Below, piece by piece: positions 5,149 to 14,146 of a stretch of 25,499 nt of DNA. Both the position numbers and the translations under genes were made by a program. The stretch is from a virus (lineage: Duplodnaviria > Heunggongvirae > Uroviricota > Caudoviricetes). Positions within the stretch are counted from its first letter, which is position 1, and the number at the start of each line of letters is the position of its first letter. The stretch covers positions 1 through 25,499 of the IMG/VR virus record IMGVR_UViG_2778261277_000016. One strand, given 5' to 3'. The notes below the pieces were generated by a model. That model was not told where the DNA came from. It did not search any database and saw only the letters and a program-made list of their open reading frames with translations.

Positions 5149-7942
5149 TATCCGGGTCGCTTTCAGCGCCGTTGACAGGCTGACCCGGCCTGCCGAAAAC
5201 GCCCGCCGCCTGATGGGGCAGTTTGGTGACTCCATCCAGCGAACGCAGGGGGCGATCAAAAATCTCGAGCGTCAGGCGCGATCATTTGAGCGCGCCCGTG
5301 ACGCTGTCAGTAAAGCGGATGCGGGCATCGTGAAAGCACGACGCCAGCTTAACGCCCTTAATCAGTTACAACGCACGGGTACAGTGCTCAGCGAAAAACA
5401 ACAAAAGCTGATGCAGCAGTTAAGCACCCGGCTTGAACGCCTGAATGAATCGCGCACACGGGAAATTCAGAAAATGCGGGAGCTTGGCGGAGAGCTGAAA
5501 CGCCACGGCATTTCCCTGACAGGCAGCGATAACACCATCCAGCAGGCCATCAGACGCACCGAACAGTACAACAACCAGCTTGAACGCGAACGGCAGGCGC
5601 TTGCGCGTGTAACACGGGCGCGTGAGCGGTATTCGCGCGCGCAGGAAACAGCGGGAAAACTGAAAACAGGTGGTGCGCTGGCAATTGGTGCGGCAGCGGC
5701 GGGCGGCTATGCTGCCGGGCGTTTTTTGCAGCCTGCGATCGGGTTCGGCAAAGAGATGTCCCGCGTTCAGGCACTGACGCGAATCGACCAGAACAGCCCG
5801 CAGTTTAAGGCGCTGCGTGAGCAGGCGTTAAAACTTGGCTCTGAAACGCAGTTCACCGCAGGCGATGCCGCCAGTGGACAGGCATTTCTTGCAATGGCTG
5901 GCTTTACACCACAGGCCATTCAGGCTGCGCTCCCTGGCGTACTGAGCATGGCAACGGCTGGCGGTATGGACCTCGGTGAGACGGCGGATATTGGCTCAAA
6001 TATTCTGACGCAGTTCGGTCTTTCTGCTGACCAGATGGACCGGGTCGGCGACACACTCACCGCAGCGTTTACCCGTACCAACACTGACCTTCGCGCACTG
6101 GGTGAAACCATGAAATATGCAGGTCCGGTGGCGGGTAAGCTGGGAATATCGCTGGAGCAGGCCGCAGCGATGGCGGGCGTGCTGGCGAATATGGGTATCA
6201 GGGGGAGTGATGCTGGTACGGCAATGCGTGCCAGCCTGGCTCGTCTGGCATCACCGCCAAAGGCGGCAGCAGAGGCGCTGAAAGAGCTTGGCGTGTCTGT
6301 CTCGGATGCCGGGGGCAAAATGCGCCCGATGGAGGATGTGCTGGCTGACCTTTATAAAGCTACCCGCAAATACGGGGAAGTTGACCGGGTATCGTTCTTT
6401 AAGGACATTGCCGGAGAAGAGGCTTTCACATCATTTATGGCCCTCGTTGATGCGGCAGGTGACGGCTCCTTACCCAAACTGAGAAAAGAACTTGAAGGCG
6501 CGCGCGGTGAGGCTGAACGCACGGCAAAGGTTATGGCCAACAACCTTGACGGCGATCTGAAATCACTCAGCAGTGCATGGGAAGGGTTGCGCATCCGCAT
6601 TGCAGATCTGATTGACGGTCCGCTGCGTTCTGTCACGCAGTGGCTCACGCGTGTGGTATCAAAGGTGACGGCGCTGGCGCAGGCCCATCCCGCACTGACG
6701 CGCCAGCTACTGATTGCAGGCGGTGCACTGCTGGCAATGACTGCAACGGTTGGCTCGTTGTCGCTGGCTATTGGTGTGCTTGCTGGCCCGCTGGCAAAAC
6801 TGCGTCTTGGTTTTTCCCTCCTGACCGGATCAATGAATGCTGTCAGGGTTCTGCCAGCACTATGGGGAATGGTGACGGGTTCCGTTTCTTTACTGGGAGG
6901 CGCTATCGGGGCGTTGTTCAGTCCGGTTGGTCTTATCGTGGCTGCGCTTGCCGGAGCTGCCGTTCTTATCTGGAAATACTGGGATCCCATCAGGGCATTT
7001 TTTGCCTGGGTGTTCAGCGGGATTATGGAAAGGCTGACCCCGTTGCGCGAAACCTTTGAACGGTTTGGTCCTGTTTTTGACGCAATCGGGAGTGGGATCA
7101 GCCAGGTGTTTAACTGGTTTAAATCGCTGCTGTCACCGATGGAGTCCAGCAAGGAAACTCTGGATAAATGTACCAGTGCTGGCGAGATATTCGGTAACGT
7201 TCTTGGCGGTGCGTTACAACTTGTTCTGACACCTGCAAAAATGTTGCTGGATACGCTGGCGTGGATACTTGAAAAGCTTGGTGTGCTTCCGGATGAAGCG
7301 GAAAGGGCGCGCAAGAAAATCGAAGACGCACAGCGTGCGGCCATTCTTCAGGACAAGGTTGCCTTGCTTCAGGGGGACCTGGCGAAAATCAATCCGCCGA
7401 AGCCTGTGGAAAATGGCAATGGCACCGGAGGTGATAACCCCAAAGACAATAAACCGCTCACAGACAGCAATACCGGTACGCTGCGCAGACTCAGCAAAAT
7501 TGCTGATAACACAGGTAAGCTGGTTGAGGAGACGAAAAAACGCATTGGCCCCGGCGATATTGTCTTTAAAAACCTGCCCCGAGCACTTGCTGTTCGTGGG
7601 GAGTGGCAGGAGCGGAAGATTGCGCAGGTCAGTAAGCCTGCCCCCGCAATTAATATCACACCCGTGGTCCCGGCTCCGCTGCCTCCGGCGCTGGTCCCTG
7701 TTGTTGCGGCCAGCTCCCGCCCGGTGGCGGAGGCTATACGATCTCCAGTGGCATCAGTTCCTGTAACTTCCCGTAACCGGGAGCCTGTTGCCTCCGGATT
7801 TGGTGGTGAAATTCATGTTCATCTGCATAACGTTGTTACGCAGAATCCCCGCGAACTGGCGAAACTGGTCGGTGAAATGGTCAGGGCAGAAATGGAACGG
7901 CGCGCCCGTGCCGGGCGTGGCAGTTTTTACGATAAAGATTGA
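5126..7942 (+). CDS. T: Tail tape measure protein (P2 gpT family)
   Basis: Very long ORF (about 940 aa) with an N-terminal coiled-coil-like region, central Gly/Ala-rich hydrophobic segments and a Pro/Val-rich C-terminus, directly after E/E'. Start is uncertain: GTG 5099, ATG 5126 or ATG 5135. Confidence 0.85.
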   Translation: MQTMKTLDIRVAFSAVDRLTRPAENARRLMGQFGDSIQRTQGAIKNLERQARSFERARDAVSKADAGIVKARRQLNALNQLQRTGTVLSEKQQKLMQQLSTRLERLNESRTREIQKMRELGGELKRHGISLTGSDNTIQQAIRRTEQYNNQLERERQALARVTRARERYSRAQETAGKLKTGGALAIGAAAAGGYAAGRFLQPAIGFGKEMSRVQALTRIDQNSPQFKALREQALKLGSETQFTAGDAASGQAFLAMAGFTPQAIQAALPGVLSMATAGGMDLGETADIGSNILTQFGLSADQMDRVGDTLTAAFTRTNTDLRALGETMKYAGPVAGKLGISLEQAAAMAGVLANMGIRGSDAGTAMRASLARLASPPKAAAEALKELGVSVSDAGGKMRPMEDVLADLYKATRKYGEVDRVSFFKDIAGEEAFTSFMALVDAAGDGSLPKLRKELEGARGEAERTAKVMANNLDGDLKSLSSAWEGLRIRIADLIDGPLRSVTQWLTRVVSKVTALAQAHPALTRQLLIAGGALLAMTATVGSLSLAIGVLAGPLAKLRLGFSLLTGSMNAVRVLPALWGMVTGSVSLLGGAIGALFSPVGLIVAALAGAAVLIWKYWDPIRAFFAWVFSGIMERLTPLRETFERFGPVFDAIGSGISQVFNWFKSLLSPMESSKETLDKCTSAGEIFGNVLGGALQLVLTPAKMLLDTLAWILEKLGVLPDEAERARKKIEDAQRAAILQDKVALLQGDLAKINPPKPVENGNGTGGDNPKDNKPLTDSNTGTLRRLSKIADNTGKLVEETKKRIGPGDIVFKNLPRALAVRGEWQERKIAQVSKPAPAINITPVVPAPLPPALVPVVAASSRPVAEAIRSPVASVPVTSRNREPVASGFGGEIHVHLHNVVTQNPRELAKLVGEMVRAEMERRARAGRGSFYDKD

Positions 7943-7948
7943 GGAGTC

Positions 7949-8443
7949 ATGGCCATGATGATGATCTACGGCATGTTTGTTTTTGAGCTGCGCACGCTGC
8001 CGCATCAGCAGTTACAGCAAAACAAAAGCTGGCGGCATGTGAAAAATGAACGCGTTAACCGTTCAGCAAGCTGGCAGTATATCGGTGCAGGTGATGATCG
8101 CATCGTTCTTTCTGGTGTGCTTTATCCTGAAATTACAGGTGGCGAAGTGTCGCTGTCGCTGCTGACCACGCAGGCGTATACAGGACGACCCTGGCCTTTG
8201 ATTGATGGTGTCGGGCAGATTTACGGCATGTATGTCCTGACCGGAACGAATACGACCCGCTCCGAGTTTGATCGCTACGGTAAGGCGAAAAAGATAGAAT
8301 TTTCACTGACTCTTGAACGCTGTGATGAGGATTTGCGGGAGCGCCTGCAATCCTCATCGTTCAGTGATATGCTGTCCGGCTTCAAAGATAAGGTCACATC
8401 ATCCCTTAACAGCGCGGCCAGCTCCGTTAACGGGCTGTTTTGA
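7949..8443 (+). CDS. U: Tail protein U (P2 gpU family)
   Basis: 164 aa; motifs such as MYVLTGTN...KIEFSLTLERCDE resemble P2 gpU from memory. True start may be the ATG at 7955, which has better spacing from the GAGGAG RBS. Confidence 0.85.
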   Translation: MAMMMIYGMFVFELRTLPHQQLQQNKSWRHVKNERVNRSASWQYIGAGDDRIVLSGVLYPEITGGEVSLSLLTTQAYTGRPWPLIDGVGQIYGMYVLTGTNTTRSEFDRYGKAKKIEFSLTLERCDEDLRERLQSSSFSDMLSGFKDKVTSSLNSAASSVNGLF

Positions 8444-8450
8444 TTAACGC

Positions 8451-8488
8451 AAAACCGCTAATGGTCAGATTAGCGGTTTTCATTTTCC
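8451..8488. terminator. Bidirectional hairpin terminator between U and the invertase fragment
   Basis: Perfect 12-bp inverted repeat AAAACCGCTAAT(8451-8462)/ATTAGCGGTTTT(8469-8480) with a 6-nt loop, followed by CATTTTCC on +. Sits between convergent genes. Confidence 0.5.
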
Positions 8489-8775
8489 TGAGTCTGCCTG
8501 GTTGTTTCTTCAGCCTGTATATCGCCTACAGGGTGATAACGATAAATCGTCGATATGCCGATGTCGTAAATGATCGCCAGTTGTTTCCTGTCATGACCGT
8601 TTTTAATCAGCCTCGCTATTTGTTCGTGTTGTTCTTTTGTCAACTTCGGGCGACGTCCGCCAATGCGTCCTTGTGCGCGTGCTGCTGCCAGCCCGGCCAG
8701 TGTACGCTCTACAATTAATTCATGTTCCATTTCGGCTAAAGCTCCCATGACGTGAAAAAAGAAACGCCCCATGGG
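8470..8775 (-). pseudogene. Truncated serine-invertase paralog (C-terminal half only)
   Basis: Translation PMGRFFFHVMGALAEMEHELIVERTLAGLAAARAQGRIGGRRPKLTKEQHEQIARLIKNGHDRKQLAIIYDIGISTIYRYHP matches the C-terminal half of the adjacent invertase with a handful of substitutions. DNA similarity stops near 8775; the catalytic N-terminus is absent and there is no convincing RBS. Confidence 0.6.
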
Positions 8776-8860
8776 TGTTGATTGATGCGCCGCGCGATAA
8801 ACGTACCTATTTCCGTGAGATAAATTACATCGCCGCGGCATTTCAATATCAGAAAAAGAA

Positions 8861-9433
8861 TTACAAATCAGCTTGAGTTTGAAGTTCCTCTACAGGGTGA
8901 TAACGATAAATCGTCGATATACCGATATCGTAAATAATTGCCAACTGTTTCCTGCTATAGCCATTTTTGATCAGCCTTGCTATTTGTTCATGTTGCTCTT
9001 TTGTCAGTTTCGGACGACGTCCACCAATACGCCCCTGTGCACGTGCTGCTTCAAGTCCGGCCAGTGTTCGTTCAACTATTAATTCACGCTCCATTTCCGC
9101 TAAAGCCCCCATGACGTGAAAAAAGAAACGTCCCATGGGTGTTGACGTATCAATGCTGTCTGTAAGACTACGGAAGTTAACCCCTTTTTCCCGCAGTTCC
9201 TCAATAAGAGTGATGAGGTGTTTCATGCTTCTGCCCAGCCTGTCCAGCTTCCAGACAACGAGCGTATCTCCTTCTGATAACGTTCTGAGCAGCTTTTTCA
9301 ATCCCGGTCGGGCTGACTTTGTTCCGCTGATTTTATCCTCAAAAATCAGTTCACATCCTGCGCAGTTCAGTGCGTTTCGTTGTAAATCTGTATTCTGGTC
9401 ATTTGTTGACACACGAATGTAGCCAATTTGCAT
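8861..9433 (-). CDS. Serine DNA invertase, Gin/Hin/Pin/Cin/Min family
   Basis: Starts MQIGYIRVSTNDQNTDLQRNAL, the canonical N-terminus of this family with the catalytic Ser in RVST. Also has TLVVWKLDRLGRS, SLTDSIDTS and a C-terminal HTH (GISTIYRYHP). AAAGAGGA RBS 8 nt before the ATG. The ORF track's upstream extension to 9628 is rejected. Confidence 0.9.
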   Translation of the reverse strand: MQIGYIRVSTNDQNTDLQRNALNCAGCELIFEDKISGTKSARPGLKKLLRTLSEGDTLVVWKLDRLGRSMKHLITLIEELREKGVNFRSLTDSIDTSTPMGRFFFHVMGALAEMERELIVERTLAGLEAARAQGRIGGRRPKLTKEQHEQIARLIKNGYSRKQLAIIYDIGISTIYRYHPVEELQTQADL

Positions 9434-9487
9434 GAAAAATATCCTCTTTGTTTTGTTAAAAATACATAGCTGGTATAGGTGGGAGTT

Positions 9488-9513
9488 AAGACGAAAACGT
9501 TGGTTTGGGGGAA
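9488..9513. repeat. Candidate 26-bp invertase crossover site (cassette 1)
   Basis: AAGACGAAAACG-TT-GGTTTGGGGGAA. Right half-site is identical in all five sites; overall shape resembles hixL TTCTTGAAAACC-AA-GGTTTTTGATAA from memory. Confidence 0.5.
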
Positions 9514-9936
9514 GGCTCAGCGCTGCCCGTTGGTGTGCCCGTTCCGTGGCCCTCAGCCACACCGCCAGCAGGGTGGCTGAAATGTAACGGCGCAGCATTT
9601 TCTTCTGAAATGTACCCCAATCTGGCAAAGGCTTATCCTACAAATAAATTACCGGATTTACGGGGTGAGTTTATTCGCGGCTGGGATGACGGGCGGGGAA
9701 TTGATTCAGGACGCACTCTACTTTCGTTACAGGGCGATATGTTTAAATCGCACAGTCATTACTTCCGTGAAATATGGGGTGCAAATGGACCAGATGGAAC
9801 TGGTGGACCGTACATTGTCGGGGCGGATACAAACGGTTCGAGAATAAATTTAGGCACTATAGAAACCAGTGCACCTGGTGGTTCAGAAACCCGTCCCCGT
9901 AACATTGCATTTAATTACATCGTAAGAGCGGCATAG
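9505..9936 (+). CDS. Silent tail-fibre C-terminal cassette 1 (tail-collar-like domain, HxH-containing); promoterless gene segment
   Basis: No ATG or RBS (the ORF track begins at TTG inside the crossover site). Conserved N-part GEGSALPVGVPVPWPSATPP.GWLKCNGAAFSSEMYP.LAKAYPTNKLPDLRGEFIRGWDDGRGID, variable middle, conserved end RPRNIAFNYIVRAA; the same ends occur in the expressed H gene. Confidence 0.75.
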   Translation: MGEGSALPVGVPVPWPSATPPAGWLKCNGAAFSSEMYPNLAKAYPTNKLPDLRGEFIRGWDDGRGIDSGRTLLSLQGDMFKSHSHYFREIWGANGPDGTGGPYIVGADTNGSRINLGTIETSAPGGSETRPRNIAFNYIVRAA

Positions 9937-9955
9937 AAACGTTGGTTTGGGGGAA
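9930..9955. repeat. Candidate crossover site (cassette 2)
   Basis: GGCATAGAAACG-TT-GGTTTGGGGGAA; the left half-site contains the stop codon of cassette 1. Confidence 0.5.
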
Positions 9956-10414
9956 GGCTCGGCGCTGCCCGTTGGTGTGCCTGTTCCGTGGCCCTCAGCC
10001 ACACCACCAACGGGCTGGCTGAAATGTAACGGTGCAGCATTTTCTTCTGAAATGTATCCCAAACTGGCAAAAGCTTACCCCACCAATAAATTACCGGATT
10101 TACGGGGTGAATTTATTCGTGGCTGGGATGATGGGCGGGGAATTGATAATAGACGCAACCTACTGTCTGCACAGTCTGACACTATTCAGAATATAGTTGG
10201 CACTTTTGGACGAACTCAGCTTTTTAAAGATGCTTTAAATTCAGGGCCATTTAGTCAAACTGACTCTATATTATCAGTAGGCTTGCAACCAACTGAGAAT
10301 ATTGAAGGATATGGCGCCTCTGTATGGACATTCGACGCCTCTCGCTCAGTTCGCACAGCATCTGAAACACGTCCTCGTAACATTGCGTTTAATTACATCG
10401 TAAGGGCGGCATAG
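9947..10414 (+). CDS. Silent tail-fibre C-terminal cassette 2 (no HxH, AT-rich variable core)
   Basis: Same conserved ends as cassette 1; variable core NRRNLLSAQSDTIQNIVGTF... is unrelated to cassettes 1 and 4; in a different reading frame from cassette 1. Confidence 0.75.
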   Translation: MGEGSALPVGVPVPWPSATPPTGWLKCNGAAFSSEMYPKLAKAYPTNKLPDLRGEFIRGWDDGRGIDNRRNLLSAQSDTIQNIVGTFGRTQLFKDALNSGPFSQTDSILSVGLQPTENIEGYGASVWTFDASRSVRTASETRPRNIAFNYIVRAA

Positions 10415-10433
10415 AAACGTTGGTTTGGGGGAA
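10408..10433. repeat. Candidate crossover site (cassette 3)
   Basis: GGCATAGAAACG-TT-GGTTTGGGGGAA, identical to the cassette 2 and 4 sites. Confidence 0.5.
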
Positions 10434-10886
10434 GGCTCTGCACTACCTGTTGGTGTGCCTGTTCCATGGCCGTCAGCCACACCGCCAACAGGGTGGCTGA
10501 AATGTAACGGTGCAGCATTTTCTTCTGAAATGTACCCCAATCTGGCAAAGGCTTACCCCACGAATAAATTACCGGATTTACGGGGCGAATTTATCCGTGG
10601 CTGGGATGACGGACGAGGTATTGATGCAGGACGAGAGATACTTTCATTTCAGGAAGGCACTATCGTCTCCGGTTTTGATGATAATGATACTGGGGATATC
10701 AGTTCACTTAGCTCAACACAATACGGATTTGGTGACACTCTAACCTCTAATCAATGGGGGGCCATAAATGGCAAAAAGTGGATATTTGATGCATCCAGTA
10801 AAGGTGCACAAAAATATGACTGGCGGGCTTATGTATCAGCTCGTCCGCGTAATATTGCATTTAATTACATCGTAAGAGCGGCATAG
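10425..10886 (+). CDS. Silent tail-fibre C-terminal cassette 3 (no HxH)
   Basis: Same conserved ends; unique variable core AGREILSFQEGTIVSGFDDNDTGD... Confidence 0.75.
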   Translation: MGEGSALPVGVPVPWPSATPPTGWLKCNGAAFSSEMYPNLAKAYPTNKLPDLRGEFIRGWDDGRGIDAGREILSFQEGTIVSGFDDNDTGDISSLSSTQYGFGDTLTSNQWGAINGKKWIFDASSKGAQKYDWRAYVSARPRNIAFNYIVRAA

Positions 10887-10905
10887 AAACGTTGGTTTGG
10901 GGGAA
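10880..10905. repeat. Candidate crossover site (cassette 4)
   Basis: GGCATAGAAACG-TT-GGTTTGGGGGAA. Confidence 0.5.
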
Positions 10906-11400
10906 GGCTCTGCACTACCCGTTGGTGTGCCTGTTCCGTGGCCCTCAGCCACACCGCCAACAGGGTGGCTGAAATGTAACGGCGCAGCATTTTCTTCTGA
11001 AATGTACCCCAAACTGGCAAAGGCTTACCCCACCAATAAATTACCGGATTTACGGGGTGAGTTTATTCGTGGCTGGGATGATGGGCGGGGAATTGATTCA
11101 GGGCGTTCCTTGCTTAATGCACAATCACATTCGGTTATAGATCATATTCATTATATGGAGTTATGGACTGGTGAAGGGCTTGCCGCAAACAACACCCGTG
11201 CAGGAACAAACCCTGGTATACTGGCTACATACGGTGATGGCGGGATTGTTAAAACAGATGAGTCAGGTGTAAAAGTTCCATCTTCACTACGTGCTATTGG
11301 CACTCGTGGTGTTTATAGATTAGGTGCCAACGGAGGGAATACAGGAACGGAAAACCGCCCCCGTAATATTGCGTTTAACTATATTGTAAGGGCTACTTAA
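10897..11400 (+). CDS. Silent tail-fibre C-terminal cassette 4 (HxH-containing), coupled to the downstream tail-fibre assembly gene
   Basis: Same conserved ends; variable core contains HIHYMELW; its stop overlaps the next gene's start as TAATG (11398-11402). Confidence 0.75.
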   Translation: MGEGSALPVGVPVPWPSATPPTGWLKCNGAAFSSEMYPKLAKAYPTNKLPDLRGEFIRGWDDGRGIDSGRSLLNAQSHSVIDHIHYMELWTGEGLAANNTRAGTNPGILATYGDGGIVKTDESGVKVPSSLRAIGTRGVYRLGANGGNTGTENRPRNIAFNYIVRAT

Positions 11401-12017
11401 TGAATAATGCTGCTGCAGTACTTGATCAGAATGGTATCGCTATAACTGCAGGCGATATTACCGTTTATAACTACGATGCTGAAAACCGTGAATATCTCTC
11501 TGCCACTGTTGAGTATCTCGCTTATGGTGTTGGAATTCCGGCTCACTCATGCATTGACGCGCCACCAGAAAAACGCCCCGGCTTCGCTGTCTGTCGTGAT
11601 ACCGACCAGAACATCTGGAAATATGTTCCAGACCACAGAGGCGAAACGGTTTACAGCACAGAGAATGGTAACGCTGTGCAAATCACACAACCGGGAGATT
11701 ACCCTCCTGATACGACGGTGAAACAGCCAGCTACTATCTATGATGTCTGGGATGGTGAGATTTGGGTGACAGATACGAGACGACAGCACGCAGCAGAACT
11801 GGAAGCTGCCGGAGCGCATCGTCAGCAACTTGAGGAACAGGCAATGGCATCTGTTGAGCTTATTAATCTCAAACTACGAGCCGGACGCCGATTGACGCCC
11901 CAGGAGACGGAAAAACTAAACGCCGTGCTTGATTTCATAGATACGCTTAATGCGACTGACATCAGCACTGCACCGGATATCAACTGGCCGGAAATGCCTC
12001 TGGCAGCAGCCAGTTGA
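11400..12017 (+). CDS. Tail fibre assembly protein (Tfa family; P2 gpG / Mu U analogue)
   Basis: 205 aa; translationally coupled to cassette 4 with an AAGGG RBS; family assignment is from memory of Tfa-like proteins (short conserved N-terminus, Asp/Pro-rich regions, coiled-coil segment) and from its position beside the fibre cassettes. Confidence 0.75.
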   Translation: MNNAAAVLDQNGIAITAGDITVYNYDAENREYLSATVEYLAYGVGIPAHSCIDAPPEKRPGFAVCRDTDQNIWKYVPDHRGETVYSTENGNAVQITQPGDYPPDTTVKQPATIYDVWDGEIWVTDTRRQHAAELEAAGAHRQQLEEQAMASVELINLKLRAGRRLTPQETEKLNAVLDFIDTLNATDISTAPDINWPEMPLAAAS

Positions 12018-12023
12018 GTATAA

Positions 12024-13541
12024 TTAAGCCGCCCTCACGATATAGTTAAATGCGATATTGCGGGGGCGAGTTTCACTACCACCAGTGTTACCAATACTCC
12101 CTCGTGAATGAAGTGTCGGTGATGGGATCAGACTCCCGCCTGTACTTGTGGCATCAAGTCCCCGTCCTTGTGTATATGTTTTTTTGAAAATTGTGGCCAA
12201 CTCCCATTCATCCTTTGTGTCATACCCATCGTTAGCTACAACAATATGGCGGTGTTTTTCCAGCATCCCAGTTTGAAAGCTTAATAAAGCACGTCCTGCA
12301 TCAATCCCTCGCCCGTCATCCCAGCCACGAATAAACTCGCCCCGTAAATCCGGTAATTTATTGGTGGGGTAAGCCTTTGCCAGTTTGGGGTACATTTCAG
12401 AAGAAAATGCTGCACCGTTACATTTCAGCCACCCTGTTGGCGGTGTGGCTGAGGGCCACGGAACAGGCACACCAACGGGTAGTGCAGAGCCTTCCCCCAA
12501 ACCAAGGTATGCGAGAAGACCAGCTACATCCTTTCCACTCAAATTGGTAAGCGTATTGTCCAGCGGTTGTTTACCTGCCAGCGCACTAAGCATTGTCGTG
12601 GCAAAGTTCGGATCATTCCCCAGTGCCGCAGCCAGTTCGTTCAGCGTGTTCAGTGCATCAGGTGACGAATCTACAAGTGCGGCAATCGCGGCCATAACGA
12701 AAGCCGTGCTTGCGATCTGGGTACTATTAGTCCCCTGTGGCGCTGTTGGTGTTGTTGGCATTCCGGTCAGTGCCGGGCTGTTTAATGGTGCTTTCTTGCT
12801 CGTTTCATCCATTACCGCCTTAACAGCTTTTGGTGTCGCTGCCAGCGTTTCAGACGTGCTGTTCGTGGCGCTACTGAGCTGAACAATCCCTTTTTGTGTT
12901 GTGGTGGCGTTCTGGGCGGTATATTTCCCGTCAGCCAGGTCATATGCAGCCTTAACTGCTTTCGGTGTTGCGGCCAGTGTTTCTGATTCACTGTTAATTG
13001 CACTGCTTAACTGAGTAAAACCTTTTGCGGTCAGCGAGGCGTCCGGGTGACGTCGTGACTGTTCGTGCTCTGAGATTTTATCATCCACATATTTGCGGGT
13101 TGCCAGAACCACCGACGGGTCGATTTTCAGCGTGATGGCTTCGGTATTCGTGACAACCAGAATCATGCGGATAGTCTGGGTGCGTCCACTGCCTTCCTGC
13201 AACTGCGGTTTGTACGTTTCCGGGCAGTTTGCCACCGCAATGAGTACACCTTCATCATCATAAAGACCAATCTCACGGATCCAGAATCCTCCCTCGTTTT
13301 CAGGGATGATTTGCTCCGCAATAATCTGGCTCTGATTGTTAGGGTCAACACTCAGAAGATTCAGCGGTGCAATGCGTTTCTGGTTAATCAGTTTTGTTTG
13401 TGCAGGGTCTGGTGTTGGTAACACACCATTTGCATCACCAACGGCCATTTGCGTCAGATTCAGCTTACTGCCGAGCATCGTCGCGTTAGCCAGTCGTGCT
13501 GCGCCCTGATTAGTCAGAATGGCGTAGTATTTCACTGTCAT
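12024..13541 (-). CDS. H: Tail fibre protein H, currently expressed variant (P2 gpH-like N-terminus fused to a tail-collar-type C-terminal cassette)
   Basis: N-terminal portion through EHEQSRRHPDASLTAKGFTQLSSA...ETLAATPKAVKA matches P2 gpH from memory. The C-terminal 155 aa begin ...LGLGEGSALPVGVPVPWPSATPPTGWLKCNG and end RPRNIAFNYIVRAA, the same frame as the silent cassettes on the opposite strand. Confidence 0.9.
   Translation of the reverse strand: MTVKYYAILTNQGAARLANATMLGSKLNLTQMAVGDANGVLPTPDPAQTKLINQKRIAPLNLLSVDPNNQSQIIAEQIIPENEGGFWIREIGLYDDEGVLIAVANCPETYKPQLQEGSGRTQTIRMILVVTNTEAITLKIDPSVVLATRKYVDDKISEHEQSRRHPDASLTAKGFTQLSSAINSESETLAATPKAVKAAYDLADGKYTAQNATTTQKGIVQLSSATNSTSETLAATPKAVKAVMDETSKKAPLNSPALTGMPTTPTAPQGTNSTQIASTAFVMAAIAALVDSSPDALNTLNELAAALGNDPNFATTMLSALAGKQPLDNTLTNLSGKDVAGLLAYLGLGEGSALPVGVPVPWPSATPPTGWLKCNGAAFSSEMYPKLAKAYPTNKLPDLRGEFIRGWDDGRGIDAGRALLSFQTGMLEKHRHIVVANDGYDTKDEWELATIFKKTYTQGRGLDATSTGGSLIPSPTLHSRGSIGNTGGSETRPRNIAFNYIVRAA
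12492..12517. repeat. Candidate crossover site inside H (constant/variable junction), inverted relative to the cassette sites
   Basis: + strand reads TTCCCCCAAACC-AA-GGTATGCGAGAA, i.e. on the - strand TTCTCGCATACC-TT-GGTTTGGGGGAA. Homology with the cassettes begins exactly at the TT core, inside the CTT codon of ...AYLGLGEGS. Confidence 0.55.
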
Positions 13542-14146
13542 GCGTTTACTCTCAGATTATCAATTAAATGAATGGCCGGGGCAGGGAAATAATCCCCTTC
13601 GACAATAATGGACTCCGGGGTGTAGGGATAAACCGTCAGGGCATCGCCGTGATAGCATCCCGTACCAACGAAAATCTTTCCGTTCACACTCAGGCTGATC
13701 GCCAGCCCCGTCAGATGGCGACTTACTGGTTTTGCATCCGCAATAAGGCGCTCAAGTTCCTGATACATTTCATCGGTGATGCCCTGATCAAGTACTCCGA
13801 CAACAATGCGAAATGTTCCTGGCTCCTCGTTGAGTTGCCACCACTCCTTTACTTCAATCAGGTAGCCGAGAGGCTCCACGGCTCTTCGCAGTGCGCTGAT
13901 GGTCCCTTTGTGTCGGTGTATCAGCCATGCATCACGAATTACCTGTCGCTTTGTCTCTTCCGGCCAGTTGCGATCCCAGCGGTCAACGGAAAACGCCCAG
14001 GCGAAATAAGGCAGCAGATGCACCGGGCAGGTGTCCGGCGACCACAGCGTGTTGAGGTCTACCGGGATGTCTGTAATGCGCGTTCCGACAGCTTCGGCAT
14101 AACGCATGAAATTGCTGGCTGATGGCGGTAACAGTGAATTACTCAT
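13538..14146 (-). CDS. I: Baseplate/tail protein I (P2 gpI family)
   Basis: Position between J and H; start set at MSNSLLPP (ATG 14144-14146), which overlaps the J stop; the ORF track extends to 14200. Confidence 0.8.
   Translation of the reverse strand: MSNSLLPPSASNFMRYAEAVGTRITDIPVDLNTLWSPDTCPVHLLPYFAWAFSVDRWDRNWPEETKRQVIRDAWLIHRHKGTISALRRAVEPLGYLIEVKEWWQLNEEPGTFRIVVGVLDQGITDEMYQELERLIADAKPVSRHLTGLAISLSVNGKIFVGTGCYHGDALTVYPYTPESIIVEGDYFPAPAIHLIDNLRVNA

Follow-up and report, generated by a model that had tools for sequence, protein, structure and literature searches.

The question raised by this locus is what the four promoterless reading frames next to a tail-fibre gene represent, and whether the tips that they encode fall into two structural classes, as the original prediction held on the basis of a His-x-His (HxH) motif and of base composition. 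The window, i.e. the whole stretch of DNA that was analysed, comprises 25,499 nucleotides of a Caudoviricetes virus (IMG/VR record IMGVR_UViG_2778261277_000016). The region very probably stores the alternative 3' ends for a multiple-inversion switch of a P2-related prophage, with tips that consist of a collar and an insert and that show three motif classes. It belongs to a known kind of locus; its type of switch, collar domain and HxH site are established, and current understanding is unchanged by it.

Layout of the locus and the inversion switch

Four silent cassettes (c1 to c4) occupy positions 9505-11400 as spare 3' ends, and a fifth tip (cE) is expressed as the distal part of the fibre protein. 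The features are as follows, with classes A to C referring to the motifs of the variable core:

8470-8841, minus strand: second copy of the invertase gene, truncated, C-terminal part only (Pfam: partial Resolvase and HTH_7)
8861-9433, minus strand: serine DNA invertase of the Gin/Cin/Pin/Min (Din) family, 190 aa, starting MQIGYIRVST (Pfam Resolvase 1.7e-51, HTH_7 1.3e-13)
9488-9513, minus strand: crossover site of cassette 1, TTCCCCCAAACC-AA-CGTTTTCGTCTT
9505-9936, plus strand: silent cassette c1, 143 aa, collar scaffold with a 62-aa core; class A, HSH at 9751-9759
9930-9955, minus strand: crossover site of cassette 2, TTCCCCCAAACC-AA-CGTTTCTATGCC
9947-10414, plus strand: silent cassette c2, 155 aa; class B core without His, 'DTIQNIVG ... 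FDASRSVRTASET'
10408-10433, minus strand: crossover site of cassette 3, 26 bp
10425-10886, plus strand: silent cassette c3, 153 aa; class C core without His, 'QEGTIVSGFDDNDTGDISS ... YVSA', and no Glu before RPRN
10880-10905, minus strand: crossover site of cassette 4, 26 bp
10897-11400, plus strand: silent cassette c4, 167 aa; class A core, HIH at 11143-11151
11400-12017, plus strand: tail-fibre assembly chaperone, 205 aa (Pfam Caudo_TAP PF02413 8.7e-26; phrog_105 5.5e-83)
12024-12500, minus strand: expressed tip cE, residues 348-505 of the 505-aa fibre; class A core, HRH at 12246-12254
12492-12517, plus strand: crossover site of the expressed gene, TTCCCCCAAACC-AA-GGTATGCGAGAA, inverted relative to the other four
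12501-13541, minus strand: constant part of the tail-fibre gene, P2 gpH-like, residues 1-347 (Pfam Phage_tail_fib PF12571 1.8e-62, Phage_fiber_2 5.2e-41)

The switch is surrounded by P2-type tail genes, including sheath- and tube-sized open reading frames, baseplate genes and an open reading frame of 947 aa whose position is that of the tape-measure gene in the related E2348/69 locus. The start of the chaperone gene overlaps the stop of c4 (TAATG). As the locus is now arranged, the chaperone and fibre genes converge, which is a point against the best explanation. A scan of positions 8400-13700 for promoters and terminators gave no excess over shuffled sequence and has no bearing on the expression of the cassettes or the chaperone.

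The invertase, composed of a Resolvase domain and a C-terminal HTH_7 domain, matches residues 1-185 of two DNA-invertase chains of 193 residues, 4M6F (E=4.5e-91) and 3UJ3 (E=2.2e-90), both of them Gin of phage Mu; the truncated copy forms a direct repeat (D2) with 84% identity to positions 8872-9145. The five crossover sites are 26-bp imperfect dyads of the form TTCCCCCAAACC-AA-N12, four of them in inverted orientation to the fifth, and resemble the consensus sequences of hix, gix and cix. The 16-bp core of the site is present in five copies in the window, with 0.03 expected by chance.

Evidence for the switching itself comes from Escherichia coli JNEC-KY180, in which the identical five cassettes are found in the order expected after exactly two inversions, with c3 fused to the fibre gene. 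Compared with the window, the flanks are exchanged exactly at the central AA of the sites; the right half of the cassette-1 site, together with its flank, is joined to c4, and the fibre-side half-site GGTTTTTGACAA differs from hixL by one base. As judged by this genome comparison, switching takes place by inversion at these sites. A P1-like plasmid carries at least 14 cassettes of the same type with all three classes mixed. In the proposed mechanism, the Gin-like serine invertase would recombine the site of the expressed gene with any of the four inverted sites at the cassette starts, whereby the chosen promoterless cassette would be fused in frame to the constant 347-residue shaft and replace the expressed tip.

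The constant scaffold

The first 67 residues are common to all five tips apart from two variable positions (A/T at 22 and N/K at 39), and the last 13 residues, RPRNIAFNYIVRA, are invariant, which agrees well with the claim that the first ~65 and last ~13 residues do not vary. Between the N-terminal parts of the tips, 5-19 of 201 nucleotides differ, yet only 0-2 amino acids do, and this disparity points to purifying selection on the protein. A profile search for a tail-collar domain found the Phage Tail Collar domain (Pfam PF07484) in all five tips at 53-56 bits, with a cut-off of 24, and all five fall in one PHROG family, phrog_523.

The conserved N- and C-terminal segments align separately to the tip of T4 gp37 (2XGF) and to 1OCY, and the sequence that separates them is variable or does not align. 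The collar of gp37, D10, is made up of residues 811-881 and 1010-1026, and the receptor-binding needle D11 (residues 882-1009) is inserted in D10 (PMC6957217). By these alignments, the scaffold is the collar domain of T4 gp37 and gp12 in two segments, one N-terminal and one C-terminal. The core, 62-86 residues long across the five tips, would be the inserted part and, by analogy, the part that binds the receptor. The predicted fixed scaffold with a swappable central insert is therefore borne out, as the collar segments align to 2XGF around the variable core.

The HxH motif

HxH had been predicted for cassettes 1 and 4 and the expressed tip and for neither c2 nor c3, which proved exact: the motif occupies tip residues 83-85 in c1 (HSH), c4 (HIH) and cE (HRH), while c2 and c3 have zero histidines and are thus not members of the HxH metal-site group of phage fibres and spikes, to which gp37, gp12, the R-pyocin fibre and P2 gpV belong. 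When the five cores were shuffled 200,000 times, HxH occurred in at least three cores 32 times and at one shared position not once. In 47 aligned class A tips, H83 and H85 never vary, although the remainder of the core does. The motif starts at core position 16 in all 93 distinct class A cores and likewise in 31 of 31 tips from an independent search that used the scaffold only.

The HRH of cE aligns with an HSH of gp37 ('KAHSHS') at positions 99-101 of the 2XGF chain, which are the first residues of the D11 insert. The register is equal in the two proteins, following 'SGRxxLS' and lying 16-18 residues past the 'GID/KP' point of the collar. On grounds of position and alignment, the HxH of c1, c4 and cE is a real structural marker, positionally homologous to a site shown to bind metal. 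The HxH-iron sites of gp37 are critical for folding (PMC6957217), and the metal geometry is octahedral with six histidines (PMC6116203). In the solved relatives, HxH forms a buried metal site on the trimer axis without receptor contact (PMC6116203, PMC6957217), so its presence or absence alone does not predict a receptor class, a link that had been raised as a possibility. HxH is best read as an assembly feature and not as a receptor marker.

Core families and motif classes

Neither BLASTP nor profile comparison found similarity between any two of the five cores. The comparison of c2 with c3 by hhalign (E=0.71 and 0.22) marks them as unrelated, and the best profile scores between cores, which are non-significant, lie among the HxH cores (E about 0.05), which form three separate sequence families. 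When whole cores were clustered by single linkage, all of them merged, owing to nine residues that they have in common at the core start ('xGRxLLSxQ'); the clustering was redone without these.

Each of the HxH-free cassettes belongs to a family with its own motifs. The c2 family is characterised by 'DAIxNIxG...FDAS...ETRPRN' and includes the short tail fibre of phage phiTE, of which residues 228-291 are matched by the class B core profile alone (E=2.6e-11). Core positions 18-26 of the c3 family invariably read 'DDNDTGDIS', and near this place other families of class C show 'DYxGxD'; class C is heterogeneous, with many unrelated families. A search of the PDB with the c3 core profile gave marginal matches to repeat proteins (curlin, toxin A, E=0.017), which were treated as chance. 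The return junction into the collar also separates the two cassettes: a Glu before RPRN is present in all 61 tips of classes A and B compared with 1 of 27 class C tips (p=2e-21), c2 sharing it with the HxH tips and c3 being without it. The three motif classes make up about one third each of 94 representative tips, and the class motifs are conserved across genera; the collar-type relatives include tips from Pectobacterium, Xenorhabdus, Photorhabdus and Pantoea. By their motifs, the tips are of at least three types, and the HxH-free tips are not one class.

It is conceivable, if unlikely, that all five inserts have the same small trimeric β-structure and have merely diverged in sequence, with a hydrophobic or polar plug in place of HxH in some lineages. 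This would account for the common scaffold, the similar insert lengths, the shared PHROG family and the fact that the best, albeit non-significant, profile scores are found among the HxH cores. It accords poorly, however, with the lack of profile similarity between the classes, with class-specific motifs that are conserved at different positions, and with the deviating return junction of c3. The c2 insert is furthermore predicted to contain four β-strands and the c4 insert none, a difference which may reflect alignment depth only.

These predictions come from AlphaFold2 monomer models. For c4 (47-sequence alignment) the mean pLDDT is 45, with the insert at about 30 and devoid of secondary structure, while for c2 (67 sequences) it is 56.6, with insert residues 80-135 at 67-79. 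Part of the N-terminal segment reaches 58-82 in c4 (residues 11-50) and 58-75 in c2 (residues 21-50), and neither yields a usable global model. As predictions, both are too poor for a comparison of folds, which is expected for intertwined trimers. A Foldseek search of the PDB with the c2 model, a weak query, returned 2XGF only (E=4e-4, TM 0.24), the rest being noise. The PDB entry for phiTE was considered as a structure for class B and rejected, since only residues 3-92 of the fibre are modelled (PMC11972413), which leaves class B without a solved insert. As the monomer models give no insert structure, the three classes are motif classes and not demonstrated folds.

Base composition and the origin of the cassettes

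The division into two structural classes, HxH and HxH-free, with the latter pair acquired separately, as judged from its AT-richness, and probably directed at another class of receptor, is improbable. The HxH split is real and positionally exact, and c2 and c3 do have the two lowest core GC values (0.423 and 0.426, with 0.468 for c1, 0.453 for c4 and 0.455 for cE). However, the cores described as visibly more AT-rich do not differ significantly from the others when pooled (42.5% versus 45.8% GC, Fisher p=0.29), and at third codon positions the gap is absent (29.5% versus 30.2%, p=0.91), so that the small gap reflects amino-acid composition and not silent sites. Across 88 distinct tips of other species, those with and without HxH do not differ in how far GC falls between scaffold and core (p=0.21; GC3 p=0.34). 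What holds generally is that all five cores are AT-richer than the scaffold (44.5% versus 53.7% GC, p=2e-5). AT-richness does not separate the classes and therefore carries no information on separate origins; horizontal exchange of cassettes is real, but it is true of all of them.

The occurrence of 'FDAS' near the C-terminal side of both c2 and c3 might have been taken to unite the pair, but the c3 family does not conserve this motif, its distant members reading 'WIGSPANSQ', and 'FDAS' was rejected as a link. Two classes are also hard to reconcile with mutually unrelated c2 and c3 cores, whose class motifs differ, with a Glu junction common to c2 and the HxH tips, with three HxH cores from as many families, and with an HxH site that is buried in the solved homologues.

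That c2 and c3 are decaying, non-functional remnants which have lost the metal site, as their lack of HxH and their silence in the window might suggest, is extremely improbable given that both reading frames are intact, that their families are each 97-99% identical in clusters of hundreds of E. coli protein sequences and have relatives in other genera with conserved class motifs, and that c3 is the cassette fused to the fibre gene in JNEC-KY180.

Proposed tip architecture

In the preferred reading, a store of alternative 3' ends with three motif classes, each cassette would encode an entire distal module like that of T4 gp37. Its collar would be formed by an invariant N-terminal segment of about 70-80 residues and an invariant C-terminal segment of about 13-17, from which a variable insert of about 45-70 residues would project, presumably to bind the receptor. 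The inserts would differ in their beginnings and ends. In class A (c1, c4, cE), the insert would start with HxH in a fixed register and, by homology to gp37, three chains would place six histidines round one buried Fe(II) or Zn on the trimer axis. In class B (c2), 'DAIxNIxG' would stand at the start of the insert and 'FDAS..V.TA.ET' on the return, and class C (c3) would have 'QxGT' and hydrophobic residues, with no Glu at the return junction.

A more speculative idea, to which we give little credence, is that the cassettes offer a choice of chemically different trimer staples at one point above the collar: six histidines with Fe or Zn in class A, a metal-free polar or hydrophobic plug ('DAIxNIxG') in class B, and in the c3 family an acidic, EF-hand-like loop, the invariant 'DDNDTGDIS', that could bind Ca2+ or Mg2+. 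If this were true, a change of tip, for instance when iron is limiting in the gut, would alter not only the receptor but also the dependence of fibre assembly on metal.

Fibre switches with several cassettes determine the host range that temperate phages, phage-plasmids and tailocins have in Enterobacteria. In the case of engineering, the swappable unit is the whole gp37-type collar with its insert, of which there are at least three motif classes, and the grammar for fibre chimeras is to cut at the crossover site or at the borders between collar and insert.

Comparison with known systems

The tip of T4 gp37 (2XGF) resembles the tips described here in its two-segment collar with an inserted receptor-binding part and in the register of its first HxH (PMC6957217). 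The C-terminal 'NIAFNYIVR' is common to both, the gp37 tip subdomain starts with a sequence that c4 and c1 resemble ('HSHYIEAWNGTG'), and 'DHIHYMELWTGEG' of c4 resembles 'EHSHYIEAWNGTG' of gp37. By contrast, the gp37 insert has 128 residues and seven HxH-iron sites, whereas the inserts here have about 45-70 residues and one HxH or none. The fibre shaft is P2 gpH-like, unlike that of gp37, the chaperone belongs to the lambda gpK/Tfa family where T4 has gp38 and gp57A, and the gp37 gene is not switched by inversion.

In the receptor-binding domain of T4 gp12 (1OCY, 1PDI, 5IV5), both collar segments align with the tips, including 'ETRPxNI..NYI', though with much weaker similarity (E 1e-5 to 0.05) than for gp37. 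Its HxH metal site, occupied by zinc in the crystal structure (PMC6116203), is set deeper within a larger knitted head, and gp12 has no cassettes. The short tail fibre of the Pectobacterium phage phiTE (sequence in PDB 9CUY/9MJN) matches c2 over the whole tip (E=7e-25) and shares 'GDAIRNITG' and 'FDASR.VP.AAEN' motifs and the absence of HxH with the c2 family, but it belongs to a flagellotropic lytic myophage, has 554 residues and does not undergo inversion.

The switch itself finds its counterparts in the Din family (Gin and the G segment of Mu, Cin and the C segment of P1, Pin of e14 and Min of p15B), which likewise combine a serine invertase and 26-bp sites having a central AA with alternative fibre 3' ends and a chaperone gene inside the invertible DNA (PMC6906374, PMC9881135). 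In Mu and P1 the choice is between two alternatives that have a chaperone each, as opposed to five collar-type tips and one shared chaperone gene here. The Min system of p15B is similar in having more than two sites, compared with five sites and five tips at this locus; the sequences compared were those of P1-like plasmids with cassettes of this type. In tailocins (carotovoricin Er, xenorhabdicin and that of Pantoea), extra 3' fragments of the fibre gene are likewise swapped with the C-terminal part of the main fibre by inversion, which changes the killing spectrum (PMC13195805; bioRxiv 10.1101/2025.04.19.648921). Tailocins are headless particles encoded at a fixed chromosomal locus, whereas in the window P2-type tail genes lie around the switch.

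Organization of the switch module

The tail genes of the window are P2-related, and the switch module is bounded by a tail-protein gene (ending at 8443) on one side and by baseplate genes on the other. Its features are:

8470-8841, minus strand: truncated invertase copy
8861-9433, minus strand: intact serine invertase, 190 residues
9505-9936, plus strand: ORF of silent 3' cassette c1, the first of four head-to-tail ORFs
9947-10414, plus strand: ORF of c2
10425-10886, plus strand: ORF of c3
10897-11400, plus strand: ORF of c4
11400-12017, plus strand: tail-fibre assembly chaperone gene, its start overlapping the c4 stop
12024-13541, minus strand: convergent P2 gpH-like fibre gene, 505 residues
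12024-12500, minus strand: expressed tip cE, a fifth copy of the cassette module that makes up the C-terminal 158 residues of the fibre

The cassette starts and the expressed tip form long inverted repeats (209-229 nt, 91-96% complementary). The truncated invertase copy directly follows a terminator-like hairpin at 8451-8480 and retains just the HTH and the C-terminal portion of the catalytic domain. It shares 84% identity with positions 8872-9145 in the intact gene and looks like a scar left when a previous module was replaced. The only chaperone gene present is translationally coupled to c4 via TAATG. It currently converges with the expressed fibre gene, as in E2348/69, and any inversion at the expressed site would put it downstream of the fibre gene and co-directional with it.

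Activity and mobility of the switch

Residues 1-185 of the invertase align to the DNA-invertase chains 4M6F and 3UJ3 of phage Mu Gin (E=4.5e-91). There are five 26-bp crossover sites of the form TTCCCCCAAACC-AA-N12, in keeping with the Din-family consensus; on one strand, four sit where the cassettes start, and the fifth, on the opposite strand, falls within the fibre gene and spans the codons for Y-L-G-L-G-E.

The invertase, chaperone and five cassettes of 8861-13541 recur in E. coli JNEC-KY180 (NZ_AP045177.1, 3579-7710), where the cores, i.e. the variable parts between the conserved N- and C-terminal scaffold segments, are 100% identical for c1, c2, c4 and cE and 98.6% identical for c3. The order there is invertase, c4 and chaperone, then cE, c2 and c1, then c3 joined to another fibre shaft. 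Exactly two site-specific inversions separate this order from that of the window, of which the first would flip c3-c4-chaperone-cE and the second c1-c2-cE-c4/chaperone, and the half-site flanks are swapped precisely at the central AA. Therefore, the switch has been active. The fusion of c3 to a fibre shaft shows that this tip, which lacks the His-x-His (HxH) motif, serves as an expressed tip. As the JNEC-KY180 module adjoins a truncated wzz(fepE) and is fused to a fibre whose N-terminal part differs (MANLPETPQWESGIYQ...), the whole switch module has moved between different prophages.

A fixed scaffold with an exchangeable insert

The first 67 residues of the five tips align without gaps and are invariant but for two positions, and the 13 residues RPRNIAFNYIVRA are invariant in all five; between the conserved segments lie cores of 62-86 residues which can barely be aligned. 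Between tips, the 201 nucleotides of the N-terminal parts carry 5-19 differences while the encoded residues carry only 0-2, which implies that the protein is under constraint. In the tail-collar HMM search all five tips matched the Phage Tail Collar domain, and the best sequence matches among solved structures were the T4 gp37 tip (2XGF, E ~1e-17 to 1e-20), the phiTE short tail fibre (9CUY) and T4 gp12. Each conserved segment, N-terminal and C-terminal, aligns to gp37, whose collar (D10, residues 811-881 and 1010-1026) carries the receptor-binding needle (D11, 882-1009) as an insertion (PMC6957217). This bears out the fixed scaffold with a swappable central insert of the original prediction.

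The split between HxH and HxH-free tips also stands. The motif occupies tip residues 83-85 of c1 (HSH), c4 (HIH) and cE (HRH), while histidine is absent from c2 and c3; in 200,000 composition-preserving shuffles HxH arose in at least three cores 32 times and never at a shared position. The HRH of cE aligns to the HSH at the start of gp37 D11, and both motifs share one register relative to the preceding 'SGRxxLS'. HxH forms an octahedral site in gp37, the R-pyocin fibre and the P2 spike: six histidines from three chains bind a buried iron, replaced by zinc in gp12, and the site is suggested to help the trimer fold and come into register (PMC6116203, PMC6957217). The HxH sites of the window would likewise bind metal. 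In addition, 'DHIHYMELWTGEG' of c4 and 'SHSHYFREIWGANG' of c1 are similar to 'EHSHYIEAWNGTG' of gp37, the stretch that precedes the receptor-contacting tip (PMC6957217).

Three motif classes of cores

The proposal that the tips fall into two structural classes was not supported. BLASTP of the five window cores against one another, without the first nine core residues common to all, matched no pair, and each core clustered as its own family. Profile-profile comparison of these cores was non-significant, with the best values for c1-cE (E=0.053) and c1-c4 (E=0.056); for c2-c3, E was 0.71, or 0.22 with independent alignments. Three motif classes recurred across a survey of 104 tips from 81 loci in a species-representative genome collection plus 353 database proteins, and an unbiased search with the scaffold alone, in which 1.84 billion representatives yielded 11,497 clusters at E<=1e-3.

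Motif classes of the tip cores (class; N-side; return junction; window tips)
A; HxH from core position 16 (93/93 and 31/31); Glu two residues before RPRN; c1, c4, cE
B; 'DAI[RQ]NIxG'; 'FDAS..V.TA.E[TN]'; c2
C; 'Qx[AG][TS]' and hydrophobic residues; no Glu; c3

The junction Glu was present in 61/61 class A and B tips vs 1/27 class C tips (p=2e-21). The best 150 representatives included 94 complete tips, 31 of class A, 30 of class B and 33 others. The class B core profile alone found phiTE residues 228-291 (E=2.6e-11), and a search with the c3 core profile gave no solved relative. The c2 junction is closer to those of HxH tips than to that of c3. Since c2 and c3 have separate motifs and junctions, HxH-free tips are not one class. 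Class C is a residual, heterogeneous group, and A, B and C are best read as classes of sequence motif. The 'FDAS' of c3 was rejected as a link to c2 because it is not conserved within the c3 family.

The stretch 'DDNDTGDIS' at c3 core positions 18-26 (~10677-10703) is invariant in 20/20 distinct c3-family cores and fits positions 1-9 of the EF-hand loop pattern, without the Glu at position 12; shuffled cores gave ~2.5 such matches per 243. In other class C families, 'DYxGxD' occupies roughly this position. The acidic stretch may be a cation site where class A has HxH.

Among monomer AlphaFold2 models, that of c4 had a mean pLDDT of 45 with the insert unstructured. In the c2 model (mean 56.6), the insert was predicted as four beta strands at pLDDT 67-79; Foldseek of this model returned 2XGF as the sole match (TM 0.24). 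The tips presumably form trimers, and their receptor specificity and chaperone use are likewise presumed.

Base composition and origin of the cassettes

AT-richness does not mark out c2 and c3: pooled core GC was 42.5% in c2 and c3 vs 45.8% in c1, c4 and cE (Fisher p=0.29), and 29.5% vs 30.2% at third positions (p=0.91). It is the cores as a whole that are clearly AT-richer (44.5% GC in all five vs 53.7% in the scaffold, p=2e-5). Across 88 distinct tips from other species, GC dropped by 6-9 points from scaffold to core in every class, with no difference in this drop between HxH and HxH-free tips.

Nor does anything set c2 and c3 apart as horizontally acquired, as had been suggested; all cassettes are mobile, and each has E. 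coli counterparts at 97-99% protein identity. The P1-like 97-kb phage-plasmid pMTY9975_untypable1 (NZ_CP135665.1, cassettes at 5593-13259) contains at least 14 collar-type tips built on this scaffold, 6 of class A, 6 of class B and 2 of class C, including close copies of the cE, c4 and c2 cores. Its cassettes, which greatly outnumber the five of the window, are partly duplicated and lie in two orientations around a single chaperone gene. A c4-like core (~72% identical to c4; ~66% across the whole aligned tip) occurs on a different collar N-terminal part with a 9-residue insertion ('GAPAIGVPFFWPSAAMPDTVIDSWS...FLKFNGAKF') in database proteins P0261-P0268. Thus, an insert can be swapped without its N-terminal collar segment. 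Two further database proteins are hybrids: in P0014 a cE-like core runs straight into a second 'LGLGEGSALP...' tip, and in P0064 a class B start ('DAIQNIVGSFGRTQLF...') is followed by an HxH-type core ('EDHAHGLPSKS...'). Their sequences suggest occasional illegitimate cassette joins.

Comparison with known systems

Describing collar inserts by a three-way motif grammar is useful but incremental, and no such description was found in the literature searched. The collar domain and the HxH site are already established, as are fibre-gene inversion switches: Mu G, P1 C, e14 P, p15B Min and those of tailocins (PMC6906374, PMC9881135, PMC13195805, bioRxiv 10.1101/2025.04.19.648921). With p15B Min, as described in the literature, the locus shares the use of more than two crossover sites. 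The locus is a well-preserved, five-tip example of these established switches.
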